Of a stretch of DNA of 64,000 nt, positions 2,321 through 48,880 are shown in pieces. Below the pieces are notes generated by a model. The model worked only from the letters and a program-made list of their open reading frames with translations, had not been told where the DNA came from and did not search any database. The DNA is from a virus. Its lineage: Duplodnaviria > Caudoviricetes. Location of the stretch: IMG/VR virus record IMGVR_UViG_3300028048_000057, positions 32,001 to 96,000 of that record. One strand, given 5' to 3'. The position numbers were made by a program, and so were the translations under genes. Each line of letters starts with the position of its first letter. Position 1 is the stretch's first letter.

Positions 2321-5300
2321 ATGGAATTATATGATAAAGTAACTCAAGTATTAGATGATTATGGTATTCTTTATGGTGATATTGTAGAAAATGATGATGG
2401 TTCTATTAATATTGTTGGTGTTGAAGAAGATGAATGGGATGAAGTAGTTGATGCTATTAAAGAAGAATTAGGCCTTGATGTTTTAGTTCCAGATTCAGAC
2501 CATGATGAATTAGACAATGAATTAATTGTTAGAGAATCCTTAAAAGAATCTTGTGTAAAATATACAAAACCAACTAAAGAAGATATTGAAGAATGGGACC
2601 CTGATTTTGATATTTGTTGTAAAGATGTTGCTAATGGATTAGATAGTGGCTATTGGCATGGACAAACCTCAAGTGAAAGAAGTTGGGGATTAAGTGTTAA
2701 TGGTAAAGATGGAAATCAATTTAGTCCATTATTTGCAGATGTAGTTGCTTATGAAATTTCTTATCCAGTTAGAGATGGTTTATTTAGTTATAGTGGTTTA
2801 GATTGTGTTCCTAATAAATCTACATTCTCCTATATGAGTGAAGAAGATTGGAAAGATGAAGATAAATTAGAAACACTTAGAAATGATTTATTAAGTGTTG
2901 GTTGTGAAGAAGAAGAAATTAATAAATTCTTTAAAGATGAAATTAGTGAAATTGAATTCTATGTTGATTATGAAATTGATATTGATGATTTAGAAGAAGA
3001 TGAAGAAGAAACTGATGAATCTTTAAAAGAAGATAAAAGTTTTAAGGATTTAACAATTGAAGACATGTTCTTTGAAGTTTCTGGTAAGAAATTTAAAGTT
3101 TTTGATAAAAATGGTCACTTCACAAAAGAAGCATGGAAATTATATGATAAAGTAGCAAAGAAATTTGGAGATTATGATGAGTTTGATGCTCTTTGTGGTG
3201 AAGAAGGTTGTTTTGAAGATGATGAAGATATTCAATACCCTTCTAATGAATCTTTAAAAGAAGCAAAAGATGAAGATAAATTAGAAACCTTTGAAGATAA
3301 AATGGACTTCTTAGCAAAAGATGAACAAGAAGCAATTGATGGTTATGACAAAGTTATTGCTATGTTAAATCCAGATGAAGATGCTTTTGTTATTGAACAA
3401 TTAACTAAAATTAAAATTGAAGAAGAAGCACATAAAAAATATCTTGAAGATGTTAAAACTAATAAAGAGTTAGAATATACTGAACCTTTAGAACAAGATG
3501 AACTTGAAGAAGGTAAAACAAGTGCTCAAAAATATAATGATATGCTTCATAGAACTTTTGAGATGGCTAAAAAAGCCAATCTTGCTATGAAAGATTTCTT
3601 AATTAAAAATGGTGTTAGTGAAGAGGAAGCAGAAAAGTTATATCAAGATACAGGATTACATGGAAGTCCATTACAACAAAAATTAATTGACATGGGACTT
3701 AAAGATGAATTCTTTAGTAAATATGATTATAGTAAAGGTGTTATGAAAGAATCTAAACAAATTAAAGAAGCACAAGAAGGATTTACTACTTTCCTTAATT
3801 TAGAGTGTGGTGTATTATTAGAAGAAGACCACCCAGAATTTAAAGACTATTCAGTTGCTTATGACCATAAACATGGATATTATGATGAAACCTATCTCAA
3901 TTCTTTAGAAGGTGATTTAGAACTTCTTAAAGAGAGTGGATTAGATTATATCAAAAAAGGTGTTAATGGAACATATGCTATTTTAACTAAAGTAGATGTC
4001 CAAGGAAGCATGGAAGATGACTTTATTAAAGATGCTATCAAAGACATTGAAGATGGAATGTATATTGATAATAGTATTGAATTCTTAGATGGTGAACAAT
4101 TCAAAGCATCTAATGTCATTTGGAGTGCATACAAAGATGAGAATGGTGAAATCCATGAAAACTTTGTTGATACAAGTGTTACTGAAGAATGTAAAAAAGA
4201 ATTAAAAGAATACAATTTACCTAAAGATGCTAAACCATATAAAACATGTGGTGATAAAGAATATTATATTGCTACCTTTGATGATGTAGATAGAGCAATG
4301 ATGGGAAACAAAGCAACTCATACAATTGTCACTAAGAAAGTTGGTGGAGACTTTGATATGGGAAGTGCTAGTGGTTTAGACTTTAATAGTGAAGAAGAAG
4401 CCAAAAAGTGGATTGATGATGCATGCTCATTAAAAGAAGATGTTAGTGATGAAGTAGCAAGTAAATTACAAGCCTTATATGATGAAGGTAGAGTTTACTT
4501 TGACCTAGCCAAAGATAAAGATGGAGATGACTTCCTCATTGTTGATGGATGGGAAGATGTTAGAAAAATTCAAAAAGCATTAAAACCAGATTTTGAACCT
4601 AAAGATGAATATGACACAAGTGTCTTAGATGAATTATTTGACAATGGTTATCAATGGGGATTTAGAGATGAATACTCTAAATGTGATAGATGTGGAAAAG
4701 TAATTAGAACAGAAGCAGACTCTTATTCATGGGTTCCAGACTTCTTTGTAACAGAAGATGGAGAAATTATTTGTGGTGATTGTGTTAGAGAAAATCCTAA
4801 AGAATATTTAGAAACTTTATATAACAACCCAGAAAAGGCAAATACAATCTTAAGTGCTCAAGACTTAATTGATAATGGTTTTGAAAAGATTGATGGTGAC
4901 TATGAAGATGGTTGGTATGACAAACATGACTCACCAGAAGAAATCCTTAACAAGGCTTTAGAAGCACATCCTAATGGAGTATTTATTTTCCATATTAGTG
5001 GACAAGGACAATTTGCAACTCAATTTGAATTATGGGGTGCAGACCTTGACTTAGATGAATCTAAGAAAAAAGACATTAAAGAAGAAAATGAAGACCATTA
5101 TGTTGTTATCTATTATGAAGATGGTAGTCATGACATTTCTTATGGTGATTATGATAAATCTTGTAAATTTTATGATGAGTATGTAGAAAAATTAGGTTCT
5201 ACTATTGAATCAGGAAAGAAGATTGTTAAAGTTTTAAGATATAGTGAAAATGGTTGTGAAGAAAGTAAATCTTTAGAAGGATTTGAAAATATTGATGAAT

Positions 5301-5509
5301 CCTTAAAGGAATCCTACAAAGAAAATGACCTTATTGAATTTGAAGATGATGCACCTATGACTTTTGGTGATATTGTTGAAATGATGTACAATAGATTATC
5401 AAAGGAAGATAACTTAGTTGAGAACTTAGAAGAAGAAGCCCTCAAATGTGCTAAAAACTTCATTGAAGAAAAAGGTGGGCATAAAGCCACTAAAGATGCA
5501 GAAAAGTAA
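2321..5509 (+). CDS. Acidic multi-module putative internal head polyprotein, 1062 aa
   Basis: 4 exact ESLKE linkers plus variants; ferritin-like segment (DEQEAIDGY...EEEAH); CxxC...CxxC module; late motif upstream. Confidence 0.6.
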   Translation: MELYDKVTQVLDDYGILYGDIVENDDGSINIVGVEEDEWDEVVDAIKEELGLDVLVPDSDHDELDNELIVRESLKESCVKYTKPTKEDIEEWDPDFDICCKDVANGLDSGYWHGQTSSERSWGLSVNGKDGNQFSPLFADVVAYEISYPVRDGLFSYSGLDCVPNKSTFSYMSEEDWKDEDKLETLRNDLLSVGCEEEEINKFFKDEISEIEFYVDYEIDIDDLEEDEEETDESLKEDKSFKDLTIEDMFFEVSGKKFKVFDKNGHFTKEAWKLYDKVAKKFGDYDEFDALCGEEGCFEDDEDIQYPSNESLKEAKDEDKLETFEDKMDFLAKDEQEAIDGYDKVIAMLNPDEDAFVIEQLTKIKIEEEAHKKYLEDVKTNKELEYTEPLEQDELEEGKTSAQKYNDMLHRTFEMAKKANLAMKDFLIKNGVSEEEAEKLYQDTGLHGSPLQQKLIDMGLKDEFFSKYDYSKGVMKESKQIKEAQEGFTTFLNLECGVLLEEDHPEFKDYSVAYDHKHGYYDETYLNSLEGDLELLKESGLDYIKKGVNGTYAILTKVDVQGSMEDDFIKDAIKDIEDGMYIDNSIEFLDGEQFKASNVIWSAYKDENGEIHENFVDTSVTEECKKELKEYNLPKDAKPYKTCGDKEYYIATFDDVDRAMMGNKATHTIVTKKVGGDFDMGSASGLDFNSEEEAKKWIDDACSLKEDVSDEVASKLQALYDEGRVYFDLAKDKDGDDFLIVDGWEDVRKIQKALKPDFEPKDEYDTSVLDELFDNGYQWGFRDEYSKCDRCGKVIRTEADSYSWVPDFFVTEDGEIICGDCVRENPKEYLETLYNNPEKANTILSAQDLIDNGFEKIDGDYEDGWYDKHDSPEEILNKALEAHPNGVFIFHISGQGQFATQFELWGADLDLDESKKKDIKEENEDHYVVIYYEDGSHDISYGDYDKSCKFYDEYVEKLGSTIESGKKIVKVLRYSENGCEESKSLEGFENIDESLKESYKENDLIEFEDDAPMTFGDIVEMMYNRLSKEDNLVENLEEEALKCAKNFIEEKGGHKATKDAEK

Positions 5510-5556
5510 TCCTACTCATGGATTAACCTAAAAGTGGCTCAGAAAGGCTAAAAATA

Positions 5557-6273
5557 ATGGAAAAAGGCCAAAGAGTTAAAATTGTTAATACTAATTCTAT
5601 TTGGGATGATAAAGAAGGTGTCTTAGAAGATATTGAGGAAGAAAGATGTACAGTATTTGTAGATTTTATTCCAGAACAAAATAAAAAAGTAAGGCAATAC
5701 TTTAAGTTAGAAAATGTAGAACCAATAGATTCTTTTGATGAAGCCCTAAAAGATAAAGTTAGTGGTGAAGTGGGAGAATTAGAAAAAGACTTCAAAAATG
5801 GATATGGTTTATTAAAAACTAATAAAGGAAATACAATTCAAGTAGCCATTGATAACCTTGAAGAAGTAGAGGACGATGTTTCTTCTTCATTAAATGTTTT
5901 AGATGTTATAACTACAGAATCTTTTGAGGAAGATTATTTTAATTTACCTAATCCTAAAGAAGCAGATTGGTTCTTTGAAAAGAAAGAATCAAATAGTTTA
6001 ATGATTTTACAAAGATTAGGACTAGAAAAAACTATTCAACTAGGAAAGGCCAAAAAAGAATCTATTTCAAATAATAATAAATACAAAGGTGGAGTAACAG
6101 TTTATTCTTTATTTAAAGGTGCAGGAAGCGGGAATCAATTTAGAGCCTATTTTTATAGAGAAGGAAATACTTGTATCTTTGTAAGATGCTTGTTAAAGAA
6201 GACAACTAAAAATACATCAGAAGAAGATAAGGCAATTATGGACACCATAAATTATGCTTTATCTAAAAAATGA
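5557..6273 (+). CDS. KOW/SH3-like N-terminus plus RelE/Gp49-like C-terminal domain
   Basis: KGQRVKIV...EGVLEDI; FRAYFYREGNTCIFVRCLLKKTTK resembles the Gp49/HigB-type RelE C-terminus. Confidence 0.45.
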   Translation: MEKGQRVKIVNTNSIWDDKEGVLEDIEEERCTVFVDFIPEQNKKVRQYFKLENVEPIDSFDEALKDKVSGEVGELEKDFKNGYGLLKTNKGNTIQVAIDNLEEVEDDVSSSLNVLDVITTESFEEDYFNLPNPKEADWFFEKKESNSLMILQRLGLEKTIQLGKAKKESISNNNKYKGGVTVYSLFKGAGSGNQFRAYFYREGNTCIFVRCLLKKTTKNTSEEDKAIMDTINYALSKK

Positions 6274-6275
6274 TG

Positions 6276-6304
6276 TTGACAAATAATATAGACCTATTTA
6301 TAAT
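6276..6304 (+). promoter_or_regulatory. Sigma70/SigA-type promoter
   Basis: TTGACA-17 bp-TATAAT. Confidence 0.85.
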
Positions 6305-6330
6305 TGTGATTGAAGTGAGGTACTAGGAAT

Positions 6331-7092
6331 ATGGAATTACCAAAATTAACTAAAGAAATTGCTAAACAAATTGATGACAACTATCAAAAGTTCTTAAAGA
6401 ATGAAGAACTCAAAGAAGCATTAAGAGAAGATGATATGCTTAAAGCAAAGGCATTAGCAGAATATCTTGGTGTAGATGTTGAAGATATTGAAAATACAGG
6501 AATTGACCTCTATAAAGTAGATGGTGATGAATATTTAGTTCTAACAGATGAAGAGGCTACAGAAAAAGCAGAAGAAGAAATTCAAAATGTTTTTGATGAT
6601 TTAGGTTTAGATTCTTTTACTGATTCATTTAAAGAATGGATTATGAACAATTGTGTCTCTACAGGTAAAGTATATGATTGGATGTTAGATTCATATAGAA
6701 GTTATGTAGATGATATTGAATTAGAAAATGATTATACTTTTGGTAACAGACTTATTCAAGAACTCTATGATAATGGTTTATTAGAAGATGAAGATTTTGA
6801 AGTTGAAGATGGAGAAATCCTCTATGATGAATTAAGAGATTCTTCTATCTTAGATAGTAAAAAAGAAGAATATGCAAATCAATTAGCATCTACAATGGAC
6901 CCTATGGATTGGTTAAAAGAAATCTATAGTGAAAAAGATTTAGCAAAATTAATTGTAGATGAAGATATGATTGATATGGAAGCCCTAATTGAAGAATGTA
7001 TTAGATTAGATGGTAGAGGCCATTTCATTGCTTACTATGATGGAAATGAACTTGACCTTGGTAATGGCTTATTTGCATATCAAGTAAACTAA
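6331..7092 (+). CDS. Highly acidic protein, possible DNA mimic/antirestriction
   Basis: Very D/E rich; own consensus promoter and terminator; function inferred only. Confidence 0.45.
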   Translation: MELPKLTKEIAKQIDDNYQKFLKNEELKEALREDDMLKAKALAEYLGVDVEDIENTGIDLYKVDGDEYLVLTDEEATEKAEEEIQNVFDDLGLDSFTDSFKEWIMNNCVSTGKVYDWMLDSYRSYVDDIELENDYTFGNRLIQELYDNGLLEDEDFEVEDGEILYDELRDSSILDSKKEEYANQLASTMDPMDWLKEIYSEKDLAKLIVDEDMIDMEALIEECIRLDGRGHFIAYYDGNELDLGNGLFAYQVN

Positions 7093-7097
7093 ACAAT

Positions 7098-7130
7098 AAA
7101 AAGCAACCAAAAATGGTTGTTTTTTATTTT
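7098..7130 (+). terminator. Intrinsic terminator
   Basis: AAAAAGCAACC-AAAAAT-GGTTGTTTTTT. Confidence 0.75.
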
Positions 7131-7324
7131 TCAATCAAAAATGGTTGCTAAAAAAGAAAGGGTAATAGAAAAAAGAAAGTAACATAAAGAAATAAAGATT
7201 ACCTAAAAGAAGTGTTGTATATGTTCTAATACATCCTATATAAATATAGTCTATATTATAACATATACAAGAGTACAGGTCACTTTTTTACCTCTTTGTT
7301 ATAAGTTTTTGTCAAAAAAAATAT

Positions 7325-7353
7325 TTGACTAAAAACATAATAGAGTTTATAAT
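7325..7353 (+). promoter_or_regulatory. Sigma70/SigA-type promoter
   Basis: TTGACT-17 bp-TATAAT. Confidence 0.8.
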
Positions 7354-7371
7354 TTAACTAAAGGTATTATT

Positions 7372-7752
7372 ATGAGAACAGATATTACACTAGAATCTAT
7401 CATTAGCCTTAGATATAATGAAGAAAGAAACTATTCTTCTCTTAAAGCATCTAAAGTAGTAGAAGTATCTTTTGATATTATTAGAAAAATAAATAAACTT
7501 AGTAAAGAATGTTGGAATGATTTATCTATTCAATTTGCTATCTATAGACAAAACTTAGCATATTATAGAAGAAATGGTGGATTATATCCTAACTTAGATT
7601 ATCCTTTAACATATAAACAAAAGATTAGTCAACTTCAAGAAATTAAATATTTTATCCTTGATAATGTAGATAAGATTAAAAATAATAATTGGACTTATGA
7701 TATTGGATATTGTAAATACATAAGAGGACTTAGAGATATTCTTACATTGTAA
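7372..7752 (+). CDS. Hypothetical protein
   Basis: ORF between a promoter and a hairpin at 7780-7803. Confidence 0.65.
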   Translation: MRTDITLESIISLRYNEERNYSSLKASKVVEVSFDIIRKINKLSKECWNDLSIQFAIYRQNLAYYRRNGGLYPNLDYPLTYKQKISQLQEIKYFILDNVDKIKNNNWTYDIGYCKYIRGLRDILTL

Positions 7753-7845
7753 TGTATAACTTTAGTTGTATAATTAATTAAGAGTGCTTTATGTAACTCT
7801 TTTCATTGCTAAATTTATTGATACAATAAATAAGGAGTTTTATAG

Positions 7846-10800
7846 ATGGATATAGATTCAAAGAGTACAAATAAGAATATTTGTAAAGAAGACTTAACTA
7901 GTGATATTGAATTAGTATCTAAGTCTTTTGGAACCTCTACACAACCATTTATGGGCCCTTCTTATATTTTACCTAATGGTAAATTTTTAAAAATAAGAAA
8001 TGCCAATATCAATATTTCTAGTAATGGAAGTGGAGATAGAGGATTAATCATTCACTTAGATGTTCAAAAATGGTTAAACAAACAACACAATAAAGAAGTA
8101 AGTAATATTGATAGTATAGATTTAGAAGAAGTTTGTATTAGAGTTAATACAGATATGGTAGAACATTATATTGTATTGCCTAAACAAAGACCTAATGATA
8201 ATCAGTTTGAAGCATTAAAGGATTGGATAGACTTCTACTTTGAAAAAAGAAATACTAATTTAACACTAGTTTCCTACTATGGTCCTACAGAGACTTATTT
8301 TGTAGGTACAGTTGCAGAAGATATTATTGATGATATTAAAGCATACTATACAAGAGGAATGTATTTTGAAAGTAAATCTTGTACAAAAGATAAACCTATA
8401 GTTATTAAAGAAGACTACACTCCTACAGAAGAAGATTTTCCATTTACTTTAGATGATATAGAAAATGAATTTCCTGATTTATTTAGTTCTAATTTTGAAT
8501 CTTGTGGAAATGCTTTTATTACTCCAGATGGAAGATTCATTCTTAGTGGAAAAAGATTTGATATGCATGCTGACTTTTCTTGGCAATGCTTAATGAACAT
8601 TGCTGGTAAGACAGAACAAGAAATTGAAACTGAGTGGGATACAAGTAAACTTTTAGATGCTTTTACTAAATATTTTGATTTAGTTAGAGTTAATGATGGT
8701 TCTAATAAAGGTTCAGAGGAAAGAGTTTATTTTGTAATTCCAAAAAATAGATTATCTAGAGGCCAATATGATGCTTTATTATCTTGGTTAGATTATATAC
8801 TAGAAAATAAGTTTTCTAAAAAGATTTATGATATTCAAGCATTTGTAGGAAATAATTATGCACATAAAAGATGGGATATATCTAATGATATTACAAGTGA
8901 TGAAATCATGGAGGATGTTGAGGGTGCTTTAATTAGAGGTTACTTTACTGAATCTCTTAAAGAAGAAGTTAGCGAAAGTGACCAAGAAATATTAAACATT
9001 TTAGATGAAACATTTGGTCAAGGTGATAGAATTGTAGATTGGTCAACTTATATTTTACCTAATGGACATTGTTTAGACTTTTGGAGTGATTGTATAAATG
9101 ATAAATATTTAAGTGATTCTCCAGAAGAATGGTTCACAGAAGATGAAGGTGAACACGCTAGATGTTGGGAATTCATGAATGCTATGTGGCCAGATAAATT
9201 TGAATCTTCTATTGAGTGTGAAGAATTTATGGATAAATATTGTATTAAAGTTAATATTAATTATCCATATGCTTCCCTTGCTACAAATAATGTTACATCT
9301 CAACAATGGAATTCATTAGAAAAAATTATGAATTGTCTTTTAGAACACCCAATAGATTATTATTGGATGGAATGCCCTAATGATGAAAAAGGAATGGTTA
9401 GTATCTTAACTAAAAAGGGAGATACTTGGTTAAACTTATTTGAACTAGGCCTTGAAGAATTCATGAAAGAAGTTAAAGAAGGATATACAAGAGGATTCTT
9501 TGAAAATTTAGATGAATATTTTGATGAAGTAGGATTTGAAGAAACTAATGAAGAATTTCCAGTATTTGCTAGTGATGAACCATATAGAATTAAAACTTTA
9601 ATCACAAAAGGTGATAAGGCTTATAGAATTTATTATGATAAGAGTACAGGAACTTTCTATCTCCAAGATGCTTTTGGTAATAGAACACATGGAGATATGC
9701 TAGACCTAGCCAAAGAAAATGGATGGATTACAGACCAAAGTTCTTTAGGTAAATACTTAGATACTGATTGGGATGGGTACATGGTTTTCATTCCATTCAA
9801 TTATGATAAAGAATTAAGATGGCACACAAGAATAGGTGAGGATGATTATTATGATTGTAGAGTTTATCCTTATGGTGTCATGTTTGTTAGAGATGATAAA
9901 GCATATGAAAACCCTCTTTTTAGTGCATTAGGAGAACCAGAAAGAGAAATTCATTATAAAGAGTCTAATGAAACTATAACTATTAGTGTAGGAGATAAAT
10001 CCTATGACTTAGATGTATGGGATGATTTAGGTGCTGAACCTAATGATGCAATCTCTTTGGATTTAGATAGTTTAGGTAAAAAGAAAAAAGACCATAATAA
10101 ATTTGAATATGTTTTAGATATGGTTAAGTCTTTAGGATTTAAAGTTGCTAATTCTGAAAGAAGATATGAACAAAAAGAATACATTAATTTTGCAAATAGA
10201 TTTTATGATGAATATCAATTAGTAAGAGATATAGATAAAGATGAACCTTGGACCTTAAAAGATGAGGAAGGAAATGTTTTAAATGATTCTTTAGATTTTA
10301 ATGATAGTGATAATTGGAATGTTATTTCTTCTTTACAAGATGCTAAAGATGATGGCATAGATGATATAGATGATGATTTACTTGATTTAGATGATTTAGA
10401 CTATGATGACATTGAAAGAGAATCTTTAGATGAAGGAGTTGATAAATACTATAGATTAGAACTTGAAGACCCTTGGGGAGGAAGGTCTGGCCTTATACTA
10501 GGTGCTTTTGAAATGATTCCAACAAAAGAGACTATTGAGGAATTTCCTGAAGATTTTGAAGAATTGACAGATGATGAGAGAAGAACATATTATGAAATTG
10601 ATAGAATAATTTCTAAGTTATCTGAAATTAAATGTCCTGCAGTAAATTCTAAAAACATTTTTGCTTTTACAAAAGAGGCTTACAATAAATATAAGGAAGA
10701 TATAAAATATCTACAAGAATTAGTATCTAAAATAGGTATGAAAGTTATTATTAATGAAGTAGATGTAGATGATTTAGATATAGAGTATAAGGATGATGAC

Positions 10801-14064: not shown

Positions 14065-14150
14065 AATAAACTATTGATTATTGGTAGGTTTTGATTTACA
14101 ATATTATTGCTAAATTTAGAGAAGATTTACATTAACAAGGAGAATTCCAA

Positions 14151-16085: not shown

Positions 16086-16092
16086 TTAATTT

Positions 16093-18708
16093 ATGAATTG
16101 GAATGATTTTTTAGTAAAAGGATATAAAGAATTAGATAATGCCCACTTACATTTTAATGTTGAAGGTGGGACTTTTGAATTTGATAATGATAGAGATGCT
16201 AGACAAGGTGCAACAATCTTAGGAAGACTCTATGGTTTTGATAATGTCATTCAAAGTGGATGGAATGTTATAGTTTCTTTTCCTGATGATGTTGATGAAA
16301 ATTTAATTAAAAAGTTAACTGAAGATTTAATTGTAATTGAACCTTATGAGGCTAAGGAAAAGTTAGCAAATCTAAAGCATCAAATTGAAAATGAAGATAC
16401 ACCAGAGAACAAAGAATCTTTAATGACATTAATGGATATTTATTTATTTCAAACATATAAACCTTCAGATAAGGAAGAGTCCAATATTACAGATGCAGAA
16501 TGGGAAGAATATTCTAAATTTTTAAATAGTGAGAAAGAAAAATATCAAAAGCATCTTAAGGAATCTAATTCAGAAACAATAGAATTATACTATGATAAAC
16601 TACCTATCAAAACTAGGTATAAGGTATTTAATGCTACTGAAATATCTCCAGAAGAGTGGGACTATAAAGAAGGATATGATTCTTGGACTTATGAAGTAGA
16701 TAAAGATTATGTTATAGATGTCTTATATGATACTATATTAGATGAAAAAGAATTTGAAAATTATTCAGAAGAAGAATTAGTAAAATACATTAATGATAAT
16801 TTTGATGACTTATTGGATAAATATTACAAAGAGGTTTTAAAATATTTTGAAGATAGTGCCATTGAAGATTATGAAGAACATAAGCGTGATGAAGATGATT
16901 GGGATGATTATAGAGAATCTTTAAATGAAGATTTAAAATCTAAGTTAGAGAAAAAGTTATCTGAAGACATGGATAATTTACCAGGAGTCTATTATGTAGT
17001 TAAATCAGATATGACTAAAAAAGGATATGGTGCACTAAGAAATATTCTGTATAGAGATGTAAATAAAGAAAAGGCATTAAAGAATTTAAAATTACATAGA
17101 CAACTTAATAAGGATAACCAAAATGTAAAGGTGTTTTTAGTATATAATAATAAAATACTAGATGAAGATATTGAAGATAGAGAAAATACTATTTTACAAG
17201 TTGTTAAAGAACATGTTGATGAATTATTGTCTTCAATGAAAGATTCACCAGTAGTAAGAAAAAGAAAAGGATGGGAAGAATGTTCTTTTGGTTATAAATT
17301 ACCAAATAGAAATATTAATATTACATATGGTTATAAGAAAGATAATAAGGTATTATTTAAAGTTGAATTCTATTCATCAAAACCTAAATATCTTGTTGCA
17401 AGTCCACAATACTATTGGTTAGTTTATAATAAAGACACAAAAGATTTACATTTTATTGATGGCCTTCAAAATTTAGAATATGAAGGATTAGAAGAAGATA
17501 TTGAAAAACACGATACTTTAAATCCTAAATTATTTGATAATAATGAATTAAAACCAGAAGTAAAAGAAGCACTTTTAAAAGTAGTAGATGCTTTTGTAGA
17601 AGATTTAAAAGATAGTGAAATAGATATTAAAGTTAAAGATGTTGTTGTAATAGGAAGCAATGTAAATTATAATTATAATAAAGATAGTGATATTGATTTA
17701 CACATTATTGCAGATTCAGACATTTCTCAATATCCAGGTGAATTATTAACTTTATTGTACAGTGCATATAGAAGTATATTCAATAAAAATTATGATATTA
17801 CAATTAAAGGAATTCCATGTGAAGTATATGTTGAATTAGATGAATTACATGGAACTAGTAATGGTGTTTATTCACTATATAATGGTTGGTTAAAAGAACC
17901 AGAGCAAAAGAATATTCCAGATATTGATATGGATACTTTTAATAAATTATTTGATGAGTGGGAAGATAAGTATTTTGCATTGTTAGATGAGATAGGAATT
18001 ACTCCAGAAGAAATGCTTGCTCTAAACGAGAGAGAAGAAGATAAAGAAGCAAGTGAAAAGGTATATAATTTTATTGAAGATATTTATGACCTTAGAAAAG
18101 AATCAATTGCTCAAGAAGGTGAATTTGGTTTAGGTAATCTTGTATTTAAAGAATTTAGAAACCTTGGATACTTAGATGCTTTAAAACAATTAACTAAAAT
18201 TCTAAAGGGAAAAGAATTATCTTTAGAAAATATAAATGAAGATTTCTCACAAGATACTTTAGAATCTATATACAAATATACACTAGATAATGATGGTGGG
18301 ACTTTTGATTTAAGAAGTGGTAAAAGCCTTTCAGGAAATGATAGCATGAAAAATGTCTATAGTGTTGAATTCAAAAGTCATGATTGGAGAAAAAGAATAG
18401 GCCAAGTAGATAAACAAGAAGTATTAAATGCTATTGAATCATTATTAAGAAGTGATAGTGTTAAAGATGCAGATGCTATCGGTACTTGGAGTAGTGGAGA
18501 AAATGAAAGACCACAATCAAGTATAGGATTAAATAAAATCTTTAAAGATAGAGAAGAAGCAGAAAAATTTGCTTTAGACCATAATCAAAAGGCTATAGGT
18601 GAATTCAATAGTAATGGAGAATATGAAGAAACTATCTATAGAAAAGACTTTAAATATAAACCTCATAAAGAAGATGAGCCAAAAGAGCAAGACAAAGAAG
18701 AGAAATAA
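16093..18708 (+). CDS. Multi-module protein with Pol-beta superfamily nucleotidyltransferase domain
   Basis: GSNVNYNYNKDSDIDLH (GS...DxD) at about 17653-17703; ESLNE and LxE linkers. Confidence 0.7.
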   Translation: MNWNDFLVKGYKELDNAHLHFNVEGGTFEFDNDRDARQGATILGRLYGFDNVIQSGWNVIVSFPDDVDENLIKKLTEDLIVIEPYEAKEKLANLKHQIENEDTPENKESLMTLMDIYLFQTYKPSDKEESNITDAEWEEYSKFLNSEKEKYQKHLKESNSETIELYYDKLPIKTRYKVFNATEISPEEWDYKEGYDSWTYEVDKDYVIDVLYDTILDEKEFENYSEEELVKYINDNFDDLLDKYYKEVLKYFEDSAIEDYEEHKRDEDDWDDYRESLNEDLKSKLEKKLSEDMDNLPGVYYVVKSDMTKKGYGALRNILYRDVNKEKALKNLKLHRQLNKDNQNVKVFLVYNNKILDEDIEDRENTILQVVKEHVDELLSSMKDSPVVRKRKGWEECSFGYKLPNRNINITYGYKKDNKVLFKVEFYSSKPKYLVASPQYYWLVYNKDTKDLHFIDGLQNLEYEGLEEDIEKHDTLNPKLFDNNELKPEVKEALLKVVDAFVEDLKDSEIDIKVKDVVVIGSNVNYNYNKDSDIDLHIIADSDISQYPGELLTLLYSAYRSIFNKNYDITIKGIPCEVYVELDELHGTSNGVYSLYNGWLKEPEQKNIPDIDMDTFNKLFDEWEDKYFALLDEIGITPEEMLALNEREEDKEASEKVYNFIEDIYDLRKESIAQEGEFGLGNLVFKEFRNLGYLDALKQLTKILKGKELSLENINEDFSQDTLESIYKYTLDNDGGTFDLRSGKSLSGNDSMKNVYSVEFKSHDWRKRIGQVDKQEVLNAIESLLRSDSVKDADAIGTWSSGENERPQSSIGLNKIFKDREEAEKFALDHNQKAIGEFNSNGEYEETIYRKDFKYKPHKEDEPKEQDKEEK

Positions 18709-18760
18709 CTTGCTAAATTTATTGATAAAGTTATAATATAAATTAGGAGATTAGATAGAT

Positions 18761-19501
18761 ATGGCAATGAGTGTTAAAGACTTAGCCAAGTGGCTTAAAC
18801 AAGAAGTAGAATTCTTAAAAGAAAACCAAGATTATGTTGGTGGTTGGATTCAATTAGGTAATGGTCTTGCTGCAGTTGTTTTATGGACTCCAGGTTGGGG
18901 TGATGAAAAAAGAGATGATTGCATTCAAGCAGAAGATAACCCAGATTATGCATTGTGTGCAGGAATTAAAATCTACAATCCACATGATACACCAGATGGT
19001 TGGTTAATGCTTAGTGATAAAGAAGGAAATATTGTTACAGAAGAAAGTGGTATTTCACCAAAAGAAGATTATGAAGCAGAAGCAAAATGGTTATTAGATG
19101 ATTTTGCTAAAGTTGAAACTGTTGATTATGATGAAGATGGTGTTATTACAAGTGAAATTGAAGAACCTAAGAAAGAAGAAGAATCTTTAAAAGAATCAAA
19201 AGGTGATTATTTAGATTCTAAATATAAAAAGATTATTGGTGAATATTTTGATTACACAGGTGACTTTGAATTCTTAGATATTGTTGCTGATGTTATTTCA
19301 AGAATTGATGATTTTGGGGATGAAGAAGATATTTGGAGAGCCATTGATGATGCATTAATTTATAATGATGACCAATGGACCATTGCTCAATTCTATGCTT
19401 CAAGTCCTAGTGAATGTGATTGGGATTCCATTATTTCAGATTTTGATGGTGATATCCACTCAATTTGTGATTTAATTATTAGTTCAGGAGATGAAGAATA
19501 A
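18761..19501 (+). CDS. Two-module acidic protein; C-terminal module possibly Ocr-like
   Basis: ESLKE linker; IWRAIDDALIYNDD in a very acidic helical domain. Confidence 0.5.
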   Translation: MAMSVKDLAKWLKQEVEFLKENQDYVGGWIQLGNGLAAVVLWTPGWGDEKRDDCIQAEDNPDYALCAGIKIYNPHDTPDGWLMLSDKEGNIVTEESGISPKEDYEAEAKWLLDDFAKVETVDYDEDGVITSEIEEPKKEEESLKESKGDYLDSKYKKIIGEYFDYTGDFEFLDIVADVISRIDDFGDEEDIWRAIDDALIYNDDQWTIAQFYASSPSECDWDSIISDFDGDIHSICDLIISSGDEE

Positions 19502-19878
19502 TGGCTAGAGAAAAACAAAGAATTTTTAAAGAATCACTTTCTCCTAAACTTCCTAATAAAAAAGTGAATGAAAGTGCTTCTAGTTTAGAAGAAGGTAAGA
19601 AACATCAATTTTTAGGTTTAATGGTTGGTAGAGATGCTTATGCTCCTACGGAAGTTGGAACCATGACAGTTGAAGAACTCATTGAAGAATTACAAACATA
19701 TGACATGAGTCTTAAAGTAGTCTTTGTCAATGATGGTGGATATACTTATGGAGGTATCTCTTCATCAGATATTAGGGAATTCTCATATGAAGATGATGAC
19801 GATGAGGATATTGAAGAATCTAAAGAAAAAGGTCACATGAAGTTTAAACCAGAGAGAAAACCTTCAATTAAAAAGTAA
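19501..19878 (+). CDS. Hypothetical protein with LxE-flanked central module
   Basis: AGGAG RBS; MTVEELIEELQTYD module. Confidence 0.6.
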   Translation: MAREKQRIFKESLSPKLPNKKVNESASSLEEGKKHQFLGLMVGRDAYAPTEVGTMTVEELIEELQTYDMSLKVVFVNDGGYTYGGISSSDIREFSYEDDDDEDIEESKEKGHMKFKPERKPSIKK

Positions 19879-19896
19879 ATTAATTCAATAAATAAA

Positions 19897-19925
19897 AAGA
19901 GAGCCCATAAATATGGGTTTTTCTT
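19897..19925 (+). terminator. Intrinsic terminator
   Basis: AAGAGAGCCCAT-AAAT-ATGGGTTTTTCTT. Confidence 0.75.
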
Positions 19926-19990
19926 ATATATTAAGAATTAGTGCTAAATTTAATGATAAAAATAAAGATTAATGTGAGGACTATCTATAG

Positions 19991-20701
19991 ATGAAATTAA
20001 GTGAATATATTGAGGATATCAAACTTGTACTCACAGGTGGAGTTTTAAGGTTAGAAATAAGTGATGACACTATTGGAAAGTTAATCTTAAAGGCCTTTTC
20101 TGAAGTTCAAAGATATATTGATGAAACAAGATTTATTCAAGTTCCTTATGCTTCTTGTATTGATTTAAAAGATTTTAAACATAGTTCTATCACAAATGTA
20201 TATAGAACTAAGGGAACAGGAATTGACACTTCTTCAGATATGAATGCTTTGAATGACCCTATGTATTTTCAAATGTGGGCTTCATATGGTTTTGGAGGAA
20301 TGTATAATTTAAATGAGTTCATATTGAATTATGGTGCTTTCAATACAATAGAACAAATTAGAAATACTCAAACAACAGACCTTAAATTTATTGAAGATAA
20401 ACAAGGTGATAAATTATATATCAACTCTTCAATAGATACACCAATAGAAATTGTAATAGAGTATGTTCCAAAATTTGATGATGTGGATGAAGTTAAGAGT
20501 GATTATTGGATTGATATTTTAAAAAGATTATCCTTAGCACATGTTAAAGCAACTTTAGGATATATAAGAACTAGAATGAAAGTTAATAATCAACCTTATA
20601 CTGATGATGGTGAAGAGATGAGAAGAGAAGGTTTAGAAGAAATTGCACAACTAGAAGAAACCTTAAGAGTGAATTCTCAACTCATATATCCAGTAGATTA
20701 G
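19991..20701 (+). CDS. Neck/head-tail adaptor, T4 gp13-like
   Basis: N-terminal YIEDIKLVLTGGVLRLEISDDTI pattern, size, C-terminal DGEEMRREGLEEI. Confidence 0.65.
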   Translation: MKLSEYIEDIKLVLTGGVLRLEISDDTIGKLILKAFSEVQRYIDETRFIQVPYASCIDLKDFKHSSITNVYRTKGTGIDTSSDMNALNDPMYFQMWASYGFGGMYNLNEFILNYGAFNTIEQIRNTQTTDLKFIEDKQGDKLYINSSIDTPIEIVIEYVPKFDDVDEVKSDYWIDILKRLSLAHVKATLGYIRTRMKVNNQPYTDDGEEMRREGLEEIAQLEETLRVNSQLIYPVD

Positions 20702-20748
20702 GTTGATGTATAATAAATAAGATGTTATAAATTAGGAGAATTTATAAA

Positions 20749-23535
20749 ATGAGTAAGATTGAAGAATTAAGAAAAGAACTTAACAATGCAAGGGATAGAC
20801 TTATTGCCAAAGGATGGAAATGGGATGGAGAAAGTGGAAATCTTATGGACATTAAGCCATTTGAAATTGCTTATCAAGAGGCTATTGAAAAAGTATTTCC
20901 AGATTATATTTGGTGGGAACTAACCAATTATTGGGATATCTTTGATGCTATGATGAGTGGAATTAATGATAAAGATATTATTGAGGAAATCATTAATCAC
21001 ATTGACCCAAGTGCTTTTGAGGAAGAGTTTGGTGAAATCAAAGAAGATGAAGATGGAGACCCTATTTTAGGAGAACCTCAAGAACATGAAATTGATGAAT
21101 TAGAAAAAGAAGATACCAAAGTAATTGCAAAATTAACAGAAGGTACAAGTAACTTCCCAGTAAGAAGTGATTTTGATTTACTTGTTTTCTATACTTTTGA
21201 TGAATTTTCAGACATGATTAGGTATAGTAGTGATTATCCTAATGAAGCATCTTTTGAAGATGATAATGGTAATGTTAATTATGAAGCATTTGAAAATGCA
21301 TGCCAAGAATTTGAAGACAAGATGTGGGAAGAAAATGAAGTTTGTGTTTTAGATGATGATGATATTGAAAGACTTAAAGATAAATTAGATGACTTTAATT
21401 TAGAAACCAAATCTATTTCAGATAGAAGATGGAATGATGAAGTTGGTGATGAAACATATGATGACCTATCTAATCTTGAAGATATTGAATTAAAGATTGA
21501 ACCAGGTTATTATGAAGCAGCATATATTGATGTTGATAATGAAAATTCAATTAAATATATGAGTAAAGAATTTGGTGAAGAACAAAGTGAAAGAATTGCT
21601 AAGTTCTTAGAAGAATTAAGAAAAGAATTTGGCTTAACAAAGTTAGGTCTTGCTTATGGTCCAGCAAGCAATGGTGAAACAGGATTTAAAATTATTAAAG
21701 AAGCAAAACCTGCAAATAAAGGTAAAAAGAAAGCAAGAATTATAGGAAATCCAGAAGCAGAAAAAACATTTTTTAATGTTGCTAATGGTACTTGTGAATC
21801 TTGCAAATTAAGTGAAGCAAAAGAAAAATCCTATGAAGAAATGTTTGATGAACTCATTGATGGAGTTGAATTTGAACTTGTAAAATATAGTGGTGAAGAT
21901 AGAAAATCCAAATCTACTTGGGATGATAAAGAATATGAAGGAGATTGGGGTTTAATTGATACCCAAGGTGCTAATTTAGGTGGCATTGAAGAAGAAAGAT
22001 TCAACAATGCTAAAGAAATCATTGATAGATTAAATGTTTATATTAGTGATTACTTCTTAGGTGGACAAGATGGTCTAGAAGTTAGTGAAGAACATCAAGA
22101 TGAATTAGATGATTGTTATACATATGAAGAAATGTTAGAATTCTTTAAGAAATATCCAGAAGAAGATGAAAATGGTTATCTTGTTGAATTATTAGACTTC
22201 ATTGTAAATCATGCTAAAGATGTTGATTTAGAAAAATGTACTTTTGAAGAATTCGGTGAAGATTCCAAAGGAAGTGAAGTTTGGGTTTTAAAATTCATTG
22301 ATAAAGATGGCAATCAAGTTAAAGAAATGGGAAAACCTATGGCTTTAGATTGCACAAAAGCATTAGCCCAAAAATTAGTTGATGCAATGAATAAGTATCC
22401 AGGAAGAGTGGGAATGACTCATGAGATTGAAAAGGCTCCTTATGCAGATTCAATGTCTTATGAAATCATTGATAGTGATGATGTAGAAGAATGGATTAGT
22501 AAGATTGAAGCAGAAGGAGAAGCCTCTAATGAATCTTTAAAAGAGGAAAAAGAACCAGAACTTCCAAAAGAAGTTACAATGGACATGGCTACTATGAATG
22601 ATTTAGATATTAACCCTTCTGAAACTGGTGGAGATGAATTAGATGAAATCATTGGTGATTGGTTAAGTGATGAATATGGATATTGTCATTTTGGTTTTGA
22701 ATATGATGTAGAAAATGACCACATCAATATTTATAACATTGAATGGGATACAAGTGAATCATTAAAAGAAAGTAGTGAAGAAGAAGTCAAAGCCCCTAAG
22801 TATGCTGATGACCTTGAAATTGAAATTGCAAATAAATTAGAAAAAGCATTTCCTCAATCTAAAGGTGTGCACGATAATGCTACAGATATAGTTATGGATA
22901 TTGTAGATTTTTATCAAACTTACTATGATGAAGGTAAAACTCAAGATGAGATTAGAGCAAAATTAATTGCTAAACTTCCTGACTATGGTGTTACACACAT
23001 GGGTATGGCTGGAAGAATTATTGATTTAGTCATAAAAGAATTTGGTATTGATAAATGGGATTGGTCAGAAGGACATCCTACAGAATCTCTTAAAGAAGAA
23101 GAAAAACCATTTGTTTGTCCAAGACCAGCAATGAAACACAAAAAGATTAAAGAAGCAAGAGAAGATAGTGTTGGTTGGTTTGAAAGTGTTAAATGTTATG
23201 GTGCTCCAGGTGATGAACCAAGTGAAGTTTATGAACCAGGACAAGGTGCTTATTGTTTAGTAGATGAAGATTGTTTCTTAGTGGATAGATTAGAAAAATA
23301 TGAAAGAGAAGCAATTTTAGACCAATTAATTAAAGGTGGTTCTCAATTTGCAATTGGTGATAATGAATATGAAATTGAATTTGCAGGTGATTGTGATTGG
23401 GATGAAGCATGGCCTCATATCTTAAGAATGTTTAAACAAGGCAAACTTAATGGAGTATTTAAATTAGATAAAAAACAAGAATGTAAAGAAGAAAAAACAA
23501 TTTCTTCTAAAATTATTAAAGCACATAGAAAATAA
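20749..23535 (+). CDS. Acidic multi-module putative internal head polyprotein, 928 aa
   Basis: 3 exact ESLKE plus LTE/LSE/IKE linkers. Confidence 0.6.
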   Translation: MSKIEELRKELNNARDRLIAKGWKWDGESGNLMDIKPFEIAYQEAIEKVFPDYIWWELTNYWDIFDAMMSGINDKDIIEEIINHIDPSAFEEEFGEIKEDEDGDPILGEPQEHEIDELEKEDTKVIAKLTEGTSNFPVRSDFDLLVFYTFDEFSDMIRYSSDYPNEASFEDDNGNVNYEAFENACQEFEDKMWEENEVCVLDDDDIERLKDKLDDFNLETKSISDRRWNDEVGDETYDDLSNLEDIELKIEPGYYEAAYIDVDNENSIKYMSKEFGEEQSERIAKFLEELRKEFGLTKLGLAYGPASNGETGFKIIKEAKPANKGKKKARIIGNPEAEKTFFNVANGTCESCKLSEAKEKSYEEMFDELIDGVEFELVKYSGEDRKSKSTWDDKEYEGDWGLIDTQGANLGGIEEERFNNAKEIIDRLNVYISDYFLGGQDGLEVSEEHQDELDDCYTYEEMLEFFKKYPEEDENGYLVELLDFIVNHAKDVDLEKCTFEEFGEDSKGSEVWVLKFIDKDGNQVKEMGKPMALDCTKALAQKLVDAMNKYPGRVGMTHEIEKAPYADSMSYEIIDSDDVEEWISKIEAEGEASNESLKEEKEPELPKEVTMDMATMNDLDINPSETGGDELDEIIGDWLSDEYGYCHFGFEYDVENDHINIYNIEWDTSESLKESSEEEVKAPKYADDLEIEIANKLEKAFPQSKGVHDNATDIVMDIVDFYQTYYDEGKTQDEIRAKLIAKLPDYGVTHMGMAGRIIDLVIKEFGIDKWDWSEGHPTESLKEEEKPFVCPRPAMKHKKIKEAREDSVGWFESVKCYGAPGDEPSEVYEPGQGAYCLVDEDCFLVDRLEKYEREAILDQLIKGGSQFAIGDNEYEIEFAGDCDWDEAWPHILRMFKQGKLNGVFKLDKKQECKEEKTISSKIIKAHRK

Positions 23536-23547
23536 GGAGATACTAAA

Positions 23548-25107
23548 ATGAATAAAATTATGATGGATGCTTTTAAAGCACTAGAAAATATTGATGATGA
23601 ATTAGTAGCCCCTAAGAGAATAGTTATTAACAAAGATAAGAAAGTTGTTAATGAATCTAAAAGTGGTAATGCCAAAAAAGTTATCAAAGAAGAAAAAATT
23701 GAGACTATAGATATCAGTGGTAAAGATATGTATGAGAGAGGTAAGGCATATTACTATGCTCATACAGGTGATGTTGTTGATATTGATGGTAAAAAATTTA
23801 GAATTGACCATAGAGAACATAAAATTGGTTATGGTGACACAATTGATTTAATTGATTTAGAAACTAAAGAATTAACTACAATTTCTAAGAAAGATTTCAT
23901 TGAGAAGGCAAAACTTTTAGATGAAAGTTGTAAAGTAGATGAAGCCCCTAAATATGACTTAGATACACAACATGATTCTAGAAAATCTTTCTATGGTAAA
24001 GCAAAAGTTGATGTTAAAGATAATGGTACCCAAGTTCTTTATTCTTATGGTACTCCAGTTTGTAGAATTGAAAATGGTAAAGTTACTCTTTTAAATAAAG
24101 GGTATTTAGGTTGGGCAAGTTCTCAAACAACTTTAAGACATGTTAAAGAATTCTTAAAACAAAATGGTTTTGAAGTTGCAAGTTTAAGAGAATTGGCAAA
24201 GATGTACCCTATTGAACAAGCAAGAGAAGATGAATCTTTAAAAGAAGCAGTAATCAATCTTAGCAAAGAAGAAGAAGTTGAAGCAGCAAAGAAAGTTTTA
24301 AATGATGAAAGTGCAGAAAAAGAATTAACAGTTGTTGATGTTGATGCAGATTCTATTGATAAACTTAAAACAGATTATATAGGTAATGCTATTTTAATTT
24401 GTCCTGTATGTAAAACTCCTATTTTCTTAAAACCTTCAGCATTAAAAAAGGAAGAAAATAGTGACAAATATAATAAAGAAATAGAATGCCCTCATTGTCA
24501 TGCTCAAGATGGATTTGATTTAGTTGCCCAAGCAGCAGAACTTACTCCAGAACAAGCAGAAAAAGAAGCAGAAAAAACAGAGTTAACAGGAAGAGAGTCT
24601 ACCTCAGAAGAAGAAACTAAAGAAGTTAAAGATGTTGATGTAAAAGTTGATATTGATTCTAATGAAGATGAAGAAAAGAAAGAAGAATCTTTAACTAGAA
24701 AATTTATGATTGAAGATATTGATGAAAATAGATTTGATAAACTTATTAATCAATATTTAATTTCAACTTACAATAATGTTGAAAGTTACTCTACTACTAG
24801 TGGTAAAGTAGATAATGATAATAATATTGTTGTTTTAGAAGGTGTCATTAAATATAAGAGTGGTAAAGAAAAACCAACTTCATTTAAATTTGAAGCAAAA
24901 TCATCTACAAGAAGTGGTAGGCTTAGATTTGTAGGTATTAATGAAACTTTAACAAAGTCAAGAAATGCTTTCTCCTTATTTGGAAGAGTTTCTAAGAGTG
25001 GTTGTTTAAGATGTGAATCTATGAATTACTCTTATGGGGTTAAAGTATTAAATGAAAGTAAACTAATTAAGGGAAGAGTTGAAATTAAAGAAAAGAAAAT
25101 GAAGTAA
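23548..25107 (+). CDS. Multi-module putative virion protein with Zn ribbon
   Basis: ESLKE linker; CPVC...CPHC; KSFYGKA...LYSYGTPV...SQTTLRHVKEFL module. Confidence 0.6.
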   Translation: MNKIMMDAFKALENIDDELVAPKRIVINKDKKVVNESKSGNAKKVIKEEKIETIDISGKDMYERGKAYYYAHTGDVVDIDGKKFRIDHREHKIGYGDTIDLIDLETKELTTISKKDFIEKAKLLDESCKVDEAPKYDLDTQHDSRKSFYGKAKVDVKDNGTQVLYSYGTPVCRIENGKVTLLNKGYLGWASSQTTLRHVKEFLKQNGFEVASLRELAKMYPIEQAREDESLKEAVINLSKEEEVEAAKKVLNDESAEKELTVVDVDADSIDKLKTDYIGNAILICPVCKTPIFLKPSALKKEENSDKYNKEIECPHCHAQDGFDLVAQAAELTPEQAEKEAEKTELTGRESTSEEETKEVKDVDVKVDIDSNEDEEKKEESLTRKFMIEDIDENRFDKLINQYLISTYNNVESYSTTSGKVDNDNNIVVLEGVIKYKSGKEKPTSFKFEAKSSTRSGRLRFVGINETLTKSRNAFSLFGRVSKSGCLRCESMNYSYGVKVLNESKLIKGRVEIKEKKMK

Positions 25108-26703: not shown

Positions 26704-26750
26704 TAAAGAGTGCTAAATTTAATGATAAAATATTAATAAGGAGAAATACA

Positions 26751-28280: not shown

Positions 28281-28297
28281 TGGAGGAAAGATAAGAT

Positions 28298-48822: not shown

Positions 48823-48855
48823 GTTCTCACATAGATTGAGAATCTTTTTTTTTTT
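48822..48855 (+). terminator. Intrinsic terminator
   Basis: GGTTCTCA-CATAGAT-TGAGAATC-T11. Confidence 0.85.
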
Positions 48856-48880
48856 ATATTTTAAGTGTATAATAAGATGT

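Follow-up and report, generated by a model that had tools for sequence, protein, structure and literature searches.

A recurrent E-S-L-K-E motif at module starts suggests packaged polyproteins processed by the head maturation protease in an uncultured phage

The stretch of DNA analysed here (the window, 64,000 nucleotides) comprises bases 32001-96000 of the IMG/VR virus record IMGVR_UViG_3300028048_000057, 161,442 bp in total, and the phage is labelled G000. Between its head genes and its tail genes lies a block of large open reading frames (ORFs; window 2321-25107) whose products are punctuated by the pentapeptide E-S-L-K-E. By analogy with T4, it is suggested that the block proteins are probably head-packaged polyproteins that are cut apart by the maturation protease of the phage. 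The motif, its statistics and conservation, its position at module starts, the protease gene, a promoter-like motif and the putative ADP-ribosyltransferase (ART) folds were computed here. An earlier note on this DNA had read the block as cassettes of small effector domains that are packaged as polyproteins, cut in the capsid and injected. That reading is supported in part, by the presence of an S77 protease gene, the fit of the motif to an L/I-x-E rule, its place at module starts, its conservation, the shuffling of modules, a promoter-like motif common to the portal and sheath genes and at least two modules with a likely ART fold.

Translation of the ORFs identified eleven exact copies of ESLKE in five block ORFs, four in 2321-5509, two in 7846-14064, one in 18761-19501, three in 20749-23535 and one in 23548-25107, together with three ESLNE and the variants ESLDE, ESLQE, ESIKE, ESIIE and ESFKE. 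These counts reproduce exactly those of the earlier note, which had also seen no exact copy in the tail or metabolic genes; none occurs in any other ORF of the window. Two further copies are present in the rest of the 161-kb genome, far downstream, in proteins of 165 amino acids (aa) and 907 aa. By amino-acid composition, the block with its 7500 residues should contain 0.05 ESLKE, and the maximum count in 2000 within-protein shuffles was one. No 5-mer is commoner in the whole phage proteome than ESLKE (13 copies versus 7 for the runner-up), and ES[LI]xE reaches a density of 2.40 per 1000 aa in the block versus 0.16 in the rest of the proteome, a 15-fold difference. The Ser, Leu, Lys and Glu codons of the motif vary, the same 15-mer is shared by only 4 of the 13 ESLKE, and 27 of the 29 near-matches of its DNA are in frame. 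Given these three properties, the conserved object is the peptide, and ESLKE is selected at the peptide level. A DNA repeat or recombination element was considered as a separate reading and is ruled out by the rarity of the common 15-mer and the frame of the near-matches.

A gp21-like protease, which the earlier note had expected elsewhere in the genome, is encoded 8 kb upstream of the window by a 519-aa ORF between the portal and major capsid genes (genome 23223-24782). It matches PF03420 (Peptidase_S77, the T4 gp21 family) with 30.8 bits against a curated cut-off of 27 (genome 23334-23657) and PHROG 207 'head maturation protease' at 1.2e-36, and its tblastn matches include T4-like phages of Escherichia, Vibrio, Synechococcus and Campylobacter. 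T4 gp21 cuts after the Glu of L/I-X-E, removing propeptides of 7-65 residues from head proteins and capsid-targeting sequences of 10 residues from internal proteins, and also shortens Alt at its two ends (PMC9026906). In phiKZ and SPN3US, the diverged homologues cleave after S/A/G-X-E and A-X-E (PMC13282480, PMC5694885, PMC10052503). E-S-L-K-E, if read as P5-P1, fits the L/I-x-E rule of T4 gp21. The S/A/G-x-E type of phiKZ and SPN3US was not found at P3-P1: the pattern itself fixes P3 as Leu in the 33 ESLxE sites, and P3 is Leu, Ile or Val at the other module starts.

Signs of this specificity may also be read from the head proteins themselves. In an alignment of the protease with five relatives, a conserved domain of ~195 residues leads into an acidic joint, which varies, and then into a long scaffold-like coiled coil. 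GHP, SSRG and a conserved Asp, invariant in six relatives, are candidates for the His/Ser/Asp triad. Every relative keeps [VFM]xE immediately behind the protease domain, and the acidic joint contains ESLKE in G006 (residue 263) and ESLTE in G003 (residue 264); C-terminal self-cleavage is a known feature of the protease family (PMC5694885). The leaders of the capsid proteins of G000, G001, G002, G003 and G006 differ in length and sequence (MITRNVDLKE, MNTSLTE, MNIVE, ...NVLLE and MNLLE), and every one of them ends in [LI]xE directly before the first conserved block, [ATK][FY].[KR][KR][LV]. As a separate observation, the joint between protease and scaffold carries inserts of ~250 aa in two relatives.

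The motif marks the starts of modules. When the block proteins of G000 and of the related phage G001 were compared by BLAST, 19 of the 31 homology-block starts lay at [LIV]xE versus 8.4 expected (P=0.0005), and 6 lay at ES[LIF]xE versus 1.1 expected, which bears out the earlier proposal that the linkers fall at module boundaries. Both WC repeats of the 2072-aa block protein had been described as starting at ES-K, and they do so at ITE/SKQD (residue 1001) and LVE/SKED (residue 1817), the slash marking the putative cut. The modules M3, M4/M9 ('WC'), M5, M7 and M8 of this protein were searched separately, and [LI]xE was found directly before each of them in divergent homologues with differing upstream neighbours; junctions of the KIVKKG module, for instance, include DESLNE/KIV, RVLLE/KIV, KSLQE/KIV, SLINE/KIV and TLDE/KIV. 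In all, E-S-L-x-E was found before at least five unrelated module families. No homology block runs across 14 of the 24 strict sites, and alignments that do span a G000 site mostly keep the hydrophobic P3 and the Glu at P1 while P2, P4 and P5 drift. The working specificity is wider than ESLKE, namely [LIV]-x-E with Ser preferred at P4 and Glu at P5. Module order, which the note had proposed to compare across relatives, differs between G000 and G001: two WC modules, two 'YILPNG' modules and one to two KIVKKG modules occupy different places in the 2072-aa protein of G000 and the 2608-aa protein of G001. That the linker enables such shuffling is compatible with the rearrangements seen. An [LI]xE within the first 14 residues was also tried as a marker of cargo and was dropped, being too common genome-wide (33 of 212 ORFs).

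The motif is conserved well beyond this phage. In G001 (115 kb), whose protease is 48-51% identical and whose block proteins are ~39-60% identical to those of G000, the top 5-mer is ESLKE with 6 copies; these, like the 4 copies of ESLEE, are located in the syntenic block. In G006 (complete, 148 kb, 30.6% guanine plus cytosine, GC) the top gapped 5-mer is ESLxE (14) and the top 5-mer ESLKE (8). In the more distant G007 (149 kb, 45% GC), ESLxE is the joint top gapped 5-mer (11), and the proteins with it, of 2122, 984 and 904 aa, are encoded downstream of the head genes. A Pfam S77 match was obtained for both G006 and G007, and the protease of G001 was found through homology to that of G000. Given that the motif is kept across a GC difference of 16 points, selection at the protein level is indicated. 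An exhaustive phmmer search with residues 864-2063 of the 2072-aa protein (E <= 0.001) returned 1390 representative proteins, and the ten that were checked are all metagenomic sequences. Among the best 150 of the 1390 (at most 50% mutual identity; 125 to 2591 aa), ESLxE occurs 109 times in 58 proteins and is the second-commonest gapped 5-mer after WCIxG, the core motif of the WC domain; this domain is present in more than 120 of the same 150 and in phages of 27 to 64% GC. A tentative extension, which falls slightly short of an even chance, is that a general 'beads-on-a-string' cargo grammar operates in a large uncultured clade of phages with T4-type heads, whereby a place after E-S-L-x-E would suffice for any small module to be packaged along with the rest and set free by the capsid protease. 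If this grammar is true, a few giant late genes would deliver a rapidly reshuffled arsenal of a dozen or more proteins, among them nucleic-acid-directed ART enzymes and the WC domain. Within G000, the 907-aa protein encoded near the genome end (genome 156065-158788) contains ESLNE333 and ESLKE769, the latter followed immediately by a sub-threshold match to LPD26 ('large polyvalent protein associated domain 26'; 21 bits versus a cut-off of 27), and is probably a further cargo polyprotein encoded away from the block.

The most extensive of the putative polyproteins is the 2072-aa protein (window 7846..14064, + strand), which comprises at least 10 modules of at least 8 distinct families, each of them found in other contexts. 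Its sites are ESLKE373, ESLDE863, ITE1001, ESLNE1350, ESLKE1517, ESFKE1702 and LVE1817. Two 'YILPNG' modules (residues 1-373) and M2 are followed by M3 (864-1001), WC domain 1 (M4, 1002-1232), M5 (1233-1350), the putative ART-fold module M6 (1351-1517), a DUF2188-like part with X3 (M7, 1518-1702), the putative ART-fold module M8 (1703-1817) and WC domain 2 (M9, 1818-2072). The WC domains, at window 10849-11541 and 13297-14061, have invariant W-C and Y-G residues. AlphaFold models place confident domains directly after three of the sites. In the model of the WC domain, built with 40 sequences (predicted local distance difference test score, pLDDT, 89.9; predicted template modelling score 0.82), the first helix begins at P1'. 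The model of residues 1351-1817 (M6-M8) is uneven, with a mean pLDDT of 64.5: ESLKE1513-1517 lies within a 7-residue stretch of pLDDT <50 after the last strand of M6, a small beta-beta-beta-alpha domain of pLDDT ~90 begins at P1' of ESLKE1517, and M8 (pLDDT >90) begins ~3 residues after ESFKE1698-1702.

Members of the ADP-ribosyltransferase superfamily dominate the top structural neighbours of M6 and M8. For M6 these include KptA (Z 8.8, with 27% identity over 93 residues) and DarT1 (Z 7.1) as well as diphtheria-type toxins, pertussis toxin S1 and PARP13; for M8 they include Tpt1 (Z 7.6), PARP16 (Z 6.2), PARP1 and PARP4; and Foldseek gives an ART match to Tpt1 at E 9e-4. The motifs LYH[GS]T and G-x-[IV]-Y are conserved in the two modules. 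Since the Z values are moderate, the ART fold of both models is graded as likely. Pfam matches of the 2072-aa protein to PARP, Tpt1 and DUF2188 are all sub-threshold, the first two agreeing with the ART fold and the last lying at the start of M7, and most other modules are without annotation. No Alt-family Pfam match was obtained for the ART modules, which places them outside the R-S-E clade of T4 Alt, ModA and ModB; they may work like Alt, albeit from outside its family. A homologue search with the ART module that was limited to proteins of near its length gave no match. PDB sequence searches with the 2072-aa protein and the 871-aa block protein gave no match either, and comparison of the WC model with the PDB produced no convincing fold match (Foldseek best E 0.26; VIA-align best Z 4.7, for the helical part only), which does not prove that the modelled fold is new. 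In BFVD the WC model resembles uncharacterised phage proteins and, weakly, PcfJ-like proteins.

These modules bear on a second reading, in which the block proteins are cut but are not injected effectors, serving instead as scaffold-like or inner-body-like head-filling or assembly proteins, after the manner of T4 gp22, gp67 and gp68 or the multi-cut propeptides of SPN3US, with fragments that are mostly expelled or structural. The block proteins are very acidic (Glu 10-15%) and have long, poorly conserved stretches between modules, in T4 the core proteins are broken down to numerous fragments, which exit the head (PMC9026906), and SPN3US propeptides are cut at several sites (PMC10052503), all of which would suit such a role. 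This is nevertheless quite unlikely for three reasons: first, two modules of likely ART fold have conserved motifs resembling active sites, and a third module resembles nucleotidyltransferases; second, many modules appear well folded, are widely conserved and also occur as short proteins in other phages; third, the modules turn over quickly between relatives, as is typical of host-interaction genes. The acidic, unconserved stretches themselves may, by analogy with SPN3US (PMC10052503), be disposable propeptides rather than effectors.

Several results weigh against the proposal that the block proteins are packaged and cut. The phage is uncultured. A phmmer search of the protease against PDB sequences gave no match. 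[LI]xE occurs 19 times per 1000 aa in the acidic block proteins and, given that the motif is so short and common, many of its instances cannot be sites. The flanks of the sites differ little in composition from the rest of the proteins, reaching no more than P=0.02 for acidic residues and no significance for hydropathy. The low pLDDT before ESFKE1702 is no proof of a linker, given the thin alignment. Some of the 'stand-alone' homologues with short leaders lie on very short contigs and may be fragments. In Streptococcus phage GXN1, the nearest cultured relative by protease, which has only ~10 kb between its capsid and sheath genes, neither the block nor an enrichment of the motif was found in the 50-kb head-to-tail stretch. 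Homology-block ends show no enrichment of the motif; as the starts are enriched and the ends are not, the motif belongs to the N-terminal edge of the module. Finally, [LIVMF]xE precedes the WC signature in 81 of 87 instances (P3 is Leu in 66 and Ile in 12 of the 87), and the same is seen on complete viral contigs, whose stand-alone WC proteins begin with leaders of 10-33 residues. Given this degree of conservation, the L-x-E may be intrinsic to the WC domain, and could be part of it, for example a helix cap, and not a cut site.

The strongest rival is an uncut junction element, a helix cap or linker that travels with the N-termini of modules and marks recombination joints, while the giant proteins act intact as 'polyvalent proteins', packaged or not. 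The persistence of L-x-E before the WC domain even in very distant phages is what a domain-intrinsic feature would produce, the first helix of the WC model begins directly at P1', and transfer without processing is known for N4 vRNAP and for several polyvalent proteins of plasmids (PMC5512222). However, Glu at P5 and Ser at P4 would be superfluous in a purely structural cap shared by unrelated folds, and E-S-L-x-E precedes at least the five unrelated families noted above. Furthermore, the motif recurs in the protease-scaffold joint of two relatives, [LI]xE terminates the variable capsid leaders, and the motif matches the known rule of the very protease family that the phage encodes. An uncut cap is therefore considered unlikely, and processing by the maturation protease is retained as the preferred reading.

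The block genes share an upstream element with genes of the virion. The element TGCTAAATTTA sits 34-50 nucleotides (nt) upstream of the starts of block genes 2321, 7846, 14151, 18761 and 19991 and is also found upstream of the portal, sheath and several other genes, often followed by (A/T)TGA; TGCTAAATTTA(W)TGA occurs at window 2278, 7807, 14108, 18711, 19942, 26711 (sheath), 36752 and 53409, and also genome-wide. The late promoter motif that the earlier note had placed before most of the block genes is thus a real motif, but it is not the T4 late box TATAAATA, which was tried and is not enriched (27 versus 21 expected). The G001 orthologues are preceded by the same TGCTAAATTTA element, which places the true start of the 2608-aa ORF of G001 at MPKEKIIIE/AKEDQEKF, giving a 9-residue leader that ends in I-I-E and is followed by a WC domain.

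The location of the block, which lies between head and tail modules and encloses a neck gene, could also indicate that its products are not head cargo at all, that is, external virion proteins (fibres or decoration) or late proteins outside the virion, any processing being due to another protease. Some of the phmmer homologues do carry leucine-rich repeats of the BspA type (5-mers IPNSV and SVTSI). Yet no fibre, receptor-binding or Ig-like domain and no other peptidase domain was detected in the block with Pfam or PHROGs, and the rule that the motif obeys is that of the capsid protease, an enzyme active inside proheads. In addition, a BFVD neighbour of the WC model is annotated 'Structural protein' in phage PA5oct (E 2.4e-5, low template modelling score), the virion proteome of which was determined by mass spectrometry (PMC7318152). 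Such a location outside the head is very unlikely.

On the preferred reading, we infer packaging, cleavage, injection and effector roles for the block proteins as follows. The block genes would be expressed late, together with those of the portal, capsid and tail proteins, and their products would be built into the prohead core. Inside the prohead, the S77 protease fused to the scaffold would cut after the Glu of [L/I/V]-x-E, with a preferred extended site of (D/N)-E-S-L-K-E followed by S/D/E/A. Since every folded module has a site directly in front of it, cutting of the 2072-aa chain would release about ten small proteins, including two putative ART-fold enzymes, a DUF2188-like domain and two copies of the WC domain. 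The acidic stretches that lack conservation may serve as propeptides for targeting or spacing and be degraded in the process. At least some of the pieces would then leave with the DNA and act in the host, by analogy with IPI-III and Alt of T4 and the ejection proteins of SPN3US and phiKZ.

Comparison with known systems indicates that the parts of this scheme are familiar. As in T4, where IPI-III and Alt are processed, there is a protease of a homologous family, an L/I-x-E motif that would be cut after Glu, short leaders ending in the motif, and diverse, fast-evolving cargo, putative in G000, that includes an ADP-ribosyltransferase and is expressed with the head genes (PMC9026906, PMC3012670). 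T4 differs in having one gene per cargo protein and one N-terminal targeting peptide of 7-19 residues, Alt having in addition a C-terminal cut, whereas in G000 chains of at least 2000 aa join up to about ten modules and have sites in their interior. The extended E-S-L-K-E consensus is undescribed for T4, the protease of G000 is fused to a scaffold-like protein, and its ART modules resemble Tpt1, KptA, DarT and PARP folds where T4 Alt belongs to the R-S-E clade. The ejection and inner-body proteins of the giant phages phiKZ, 201phi2-1 and SPN3US, which gp175/gp245 cleave, are alike in that a diverged gp21-type protease cuts many head proteins after Glu at a three-residue motif, propeptides have multiple sites, the protease cleaves its own C-terminus and proteins are ejected into the host (PMC10052503, PMC5694885, PMC13282480). 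They differ in P3, which is Ala, Ser or Gly in phiKZ and SPN3US and Leu or Ile in G000; moreover, 13 of the 14 mapped cuts of SPN3US remove N-terminal propeptides from single mature proteins and do not divide a chain of independent modules.

A third likeness is to the giant polyvalent proteins of phages and conjugative elements, which, according to Iyer et al. 2017 (PMC5512222) and Iyer et al. 2022 (PMC9503650), have 2-15 domains, are encoded beside virion genes and are predicted to be packaged and injected, with ART as their commonest enzymatic domain and extensive shuffling of modules. The 2072-aa chain of G000 agrees with that description, combining many unrelated domains beside the virion genes of a portal-terminase phage. 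Of the signature domains, the ART fold is predicted from structure in two modules, Pfam matches lie below cut-off, and LPD26 reaches the 21 of 27 bits given above; most modules of G000 match none of the domains that those authors name. Processing of polyvalent proteins, if any, is there proposed to occur through embedded peptidase domains (zincin-like MPTase), none of which was found in the block proteins of G000, and the passages searched describe no repeated capsid-protease consensus at every domain joint. A literature search, with most subscription journals outside it, found no paper describing cargo polyproteins with such a consensus at every joint. The S77 protease rule, capsid-targeted cargo and polyvalent proteins are each known.

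Polyprotein processing is a strategy known from RNA viruses and, to our knowledge, has not been described for tailed-phage cargo. If the joints are cut, this clade of phages would use its capsid protease as a polyprotein processor, and the capsid targeting and processing of T4 would be linked to polyvalent effector proteins, which have so far been described separately. Cutting would also provide a simple sequence rule for spotting capsid cargo in metagenomes and the start of each mature product, so that giant ORFs now lacking annotation, in their hundreds, could be read as sets of candidate proteins for host takeover or anti-defence. The motif could furthermore be used in design, to load several foreign proteins into phage heads.

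The remaining block genes, all on the + strand, repeat the pattern with individual variations. The first, at 2321..5509 with TGCTAAATTTA at 2278, encodes a 1062-aa acidic, putatively late protein with ESLKE at residues 72, 233, 310 and 993 (nt 2534-2548, 3017-3031, 3248-3262 and 5297-5311) and a PHROG 35561 match at residues 781-913; its residues 294-394 match a module of a separate 374-aa protein of G001, with ESLKE just upstream in both. Two small genes follow (5557..7092; 238 and 253 aa), the first with ESFEE at residue 121. Parts of them, an SH3-like N-terminal stretch of 55 aa and a 220-aa module, are fused in one 306-aa protein of G001, and the metagenomic protein P0150 has the same 55-aa N-terminal module followed by VLTE and a module of M3 type. 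The SH3-like domain is thus joined to different partners in G000, G001 and the metagenomic protein, and the gene pair, compared with the single gene of G001, looks like module exchange rather than a broken gene.

Downstream of the 2072-aa polyprotein, the gene at 14151..16085 (TGCTAAATTTA at 14108) encodes a 644-aa acidic protein with the N-terminal leader MSVRKLLE and the sites ESIIE214, ESIKE353, ESLQE486 and ESLNE567. The 871-aa protein (16093..18708; PHROG 36119, 1e-31) has ESLNE at residue 275 and a conserved C-terminal module (466-853) that begins right after LEE (IDE in G001) and has sub-threshold matches to nucleotidyltransferases of the Pol-beta type. At 18761..19878, a 246-aa protein with ESLKE141 between two modules is followed by a 125-aa gene; in G001 the two modules are split by a 250-aa insert and ESLKE stands just before the second. 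The gene at 19991..20701, with its own TGCTAAATTTA at 19942 and a G001 orthologue 56% identical, encodes a head-tail adaptor (neck protein; PHROG 211 'Ad2', 2.5e-9) and has no ES[LI]xE. Of the gp13- and gp14-like neck genes that had been reported as interleaved with the block, this one adaptor is confirmed; no gp13-like gene was identified with Pfam or PHROGs, the other candidate block genes having no match in either. The 928-aa protein (20749..23535) is conserved over its N-terminal 445 aa (39% identity to G001) and has ESLKE at residues 595, 670 and 779, in the variable C-terminal part; an ESM Atlas search with its residues 1-598 gave no usable match. In the last block protein (23548..25107; 519 aa), the place of ESLKE229 is taken by DLNE and ESVKE in the aligned relatives, and a conserved module begins after LDE123 (VEE in G001).

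G000 is a myovirus of an anaerobe, with a genome of 29% GC, a CheckV completeness estimate of 91% and all large genes on the + strand; it carries NrdD, and low-GC anaerobes are its candidate hosts. The large terminase, portal, 519-aa head maturation protease and major capsid protein are encoded upstream of the window. The downstream border of the block (26041..28885, + strand) is formed by a weak T4 gp15-like gene at 26041, itself a sub-threshold match, the tail sheath and the tail tube, all without ES[LI]xE; the baseplate hub lies beyond the tail tube, and a helicase and an anaerobic ribonucleotide reductase further downstream in the window. Cultured relatives of the block were sought among 50,697 GenBank phages by megablast of the block and tblastn of the WC domain, with no match.

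Some observations concern genes other than those of the block. Directly 3' of the major capsid gene (genome 26336-28723) lie genes for a Stealth_CR2 protein (4e-29) and a family-2 glycosyltransferase, one of which has its own late promoter-like motif; Stealth_CR2 is a family of capsule-type sugar-phosphate transferases, and the pair may serve the glycosylation of virion proteins. A 179-aa ORF and a homing-endonuclease-like ORF (PHROG 314) come after the gene for the anaerobic ribonucleotide reductase (window 46370-49714). The large terminase is one ORF in G000 and two in G001, and an inserted ORF seemingly splits the capsid gene of G007; both are likely due to mobile introns or homing endonucleases.

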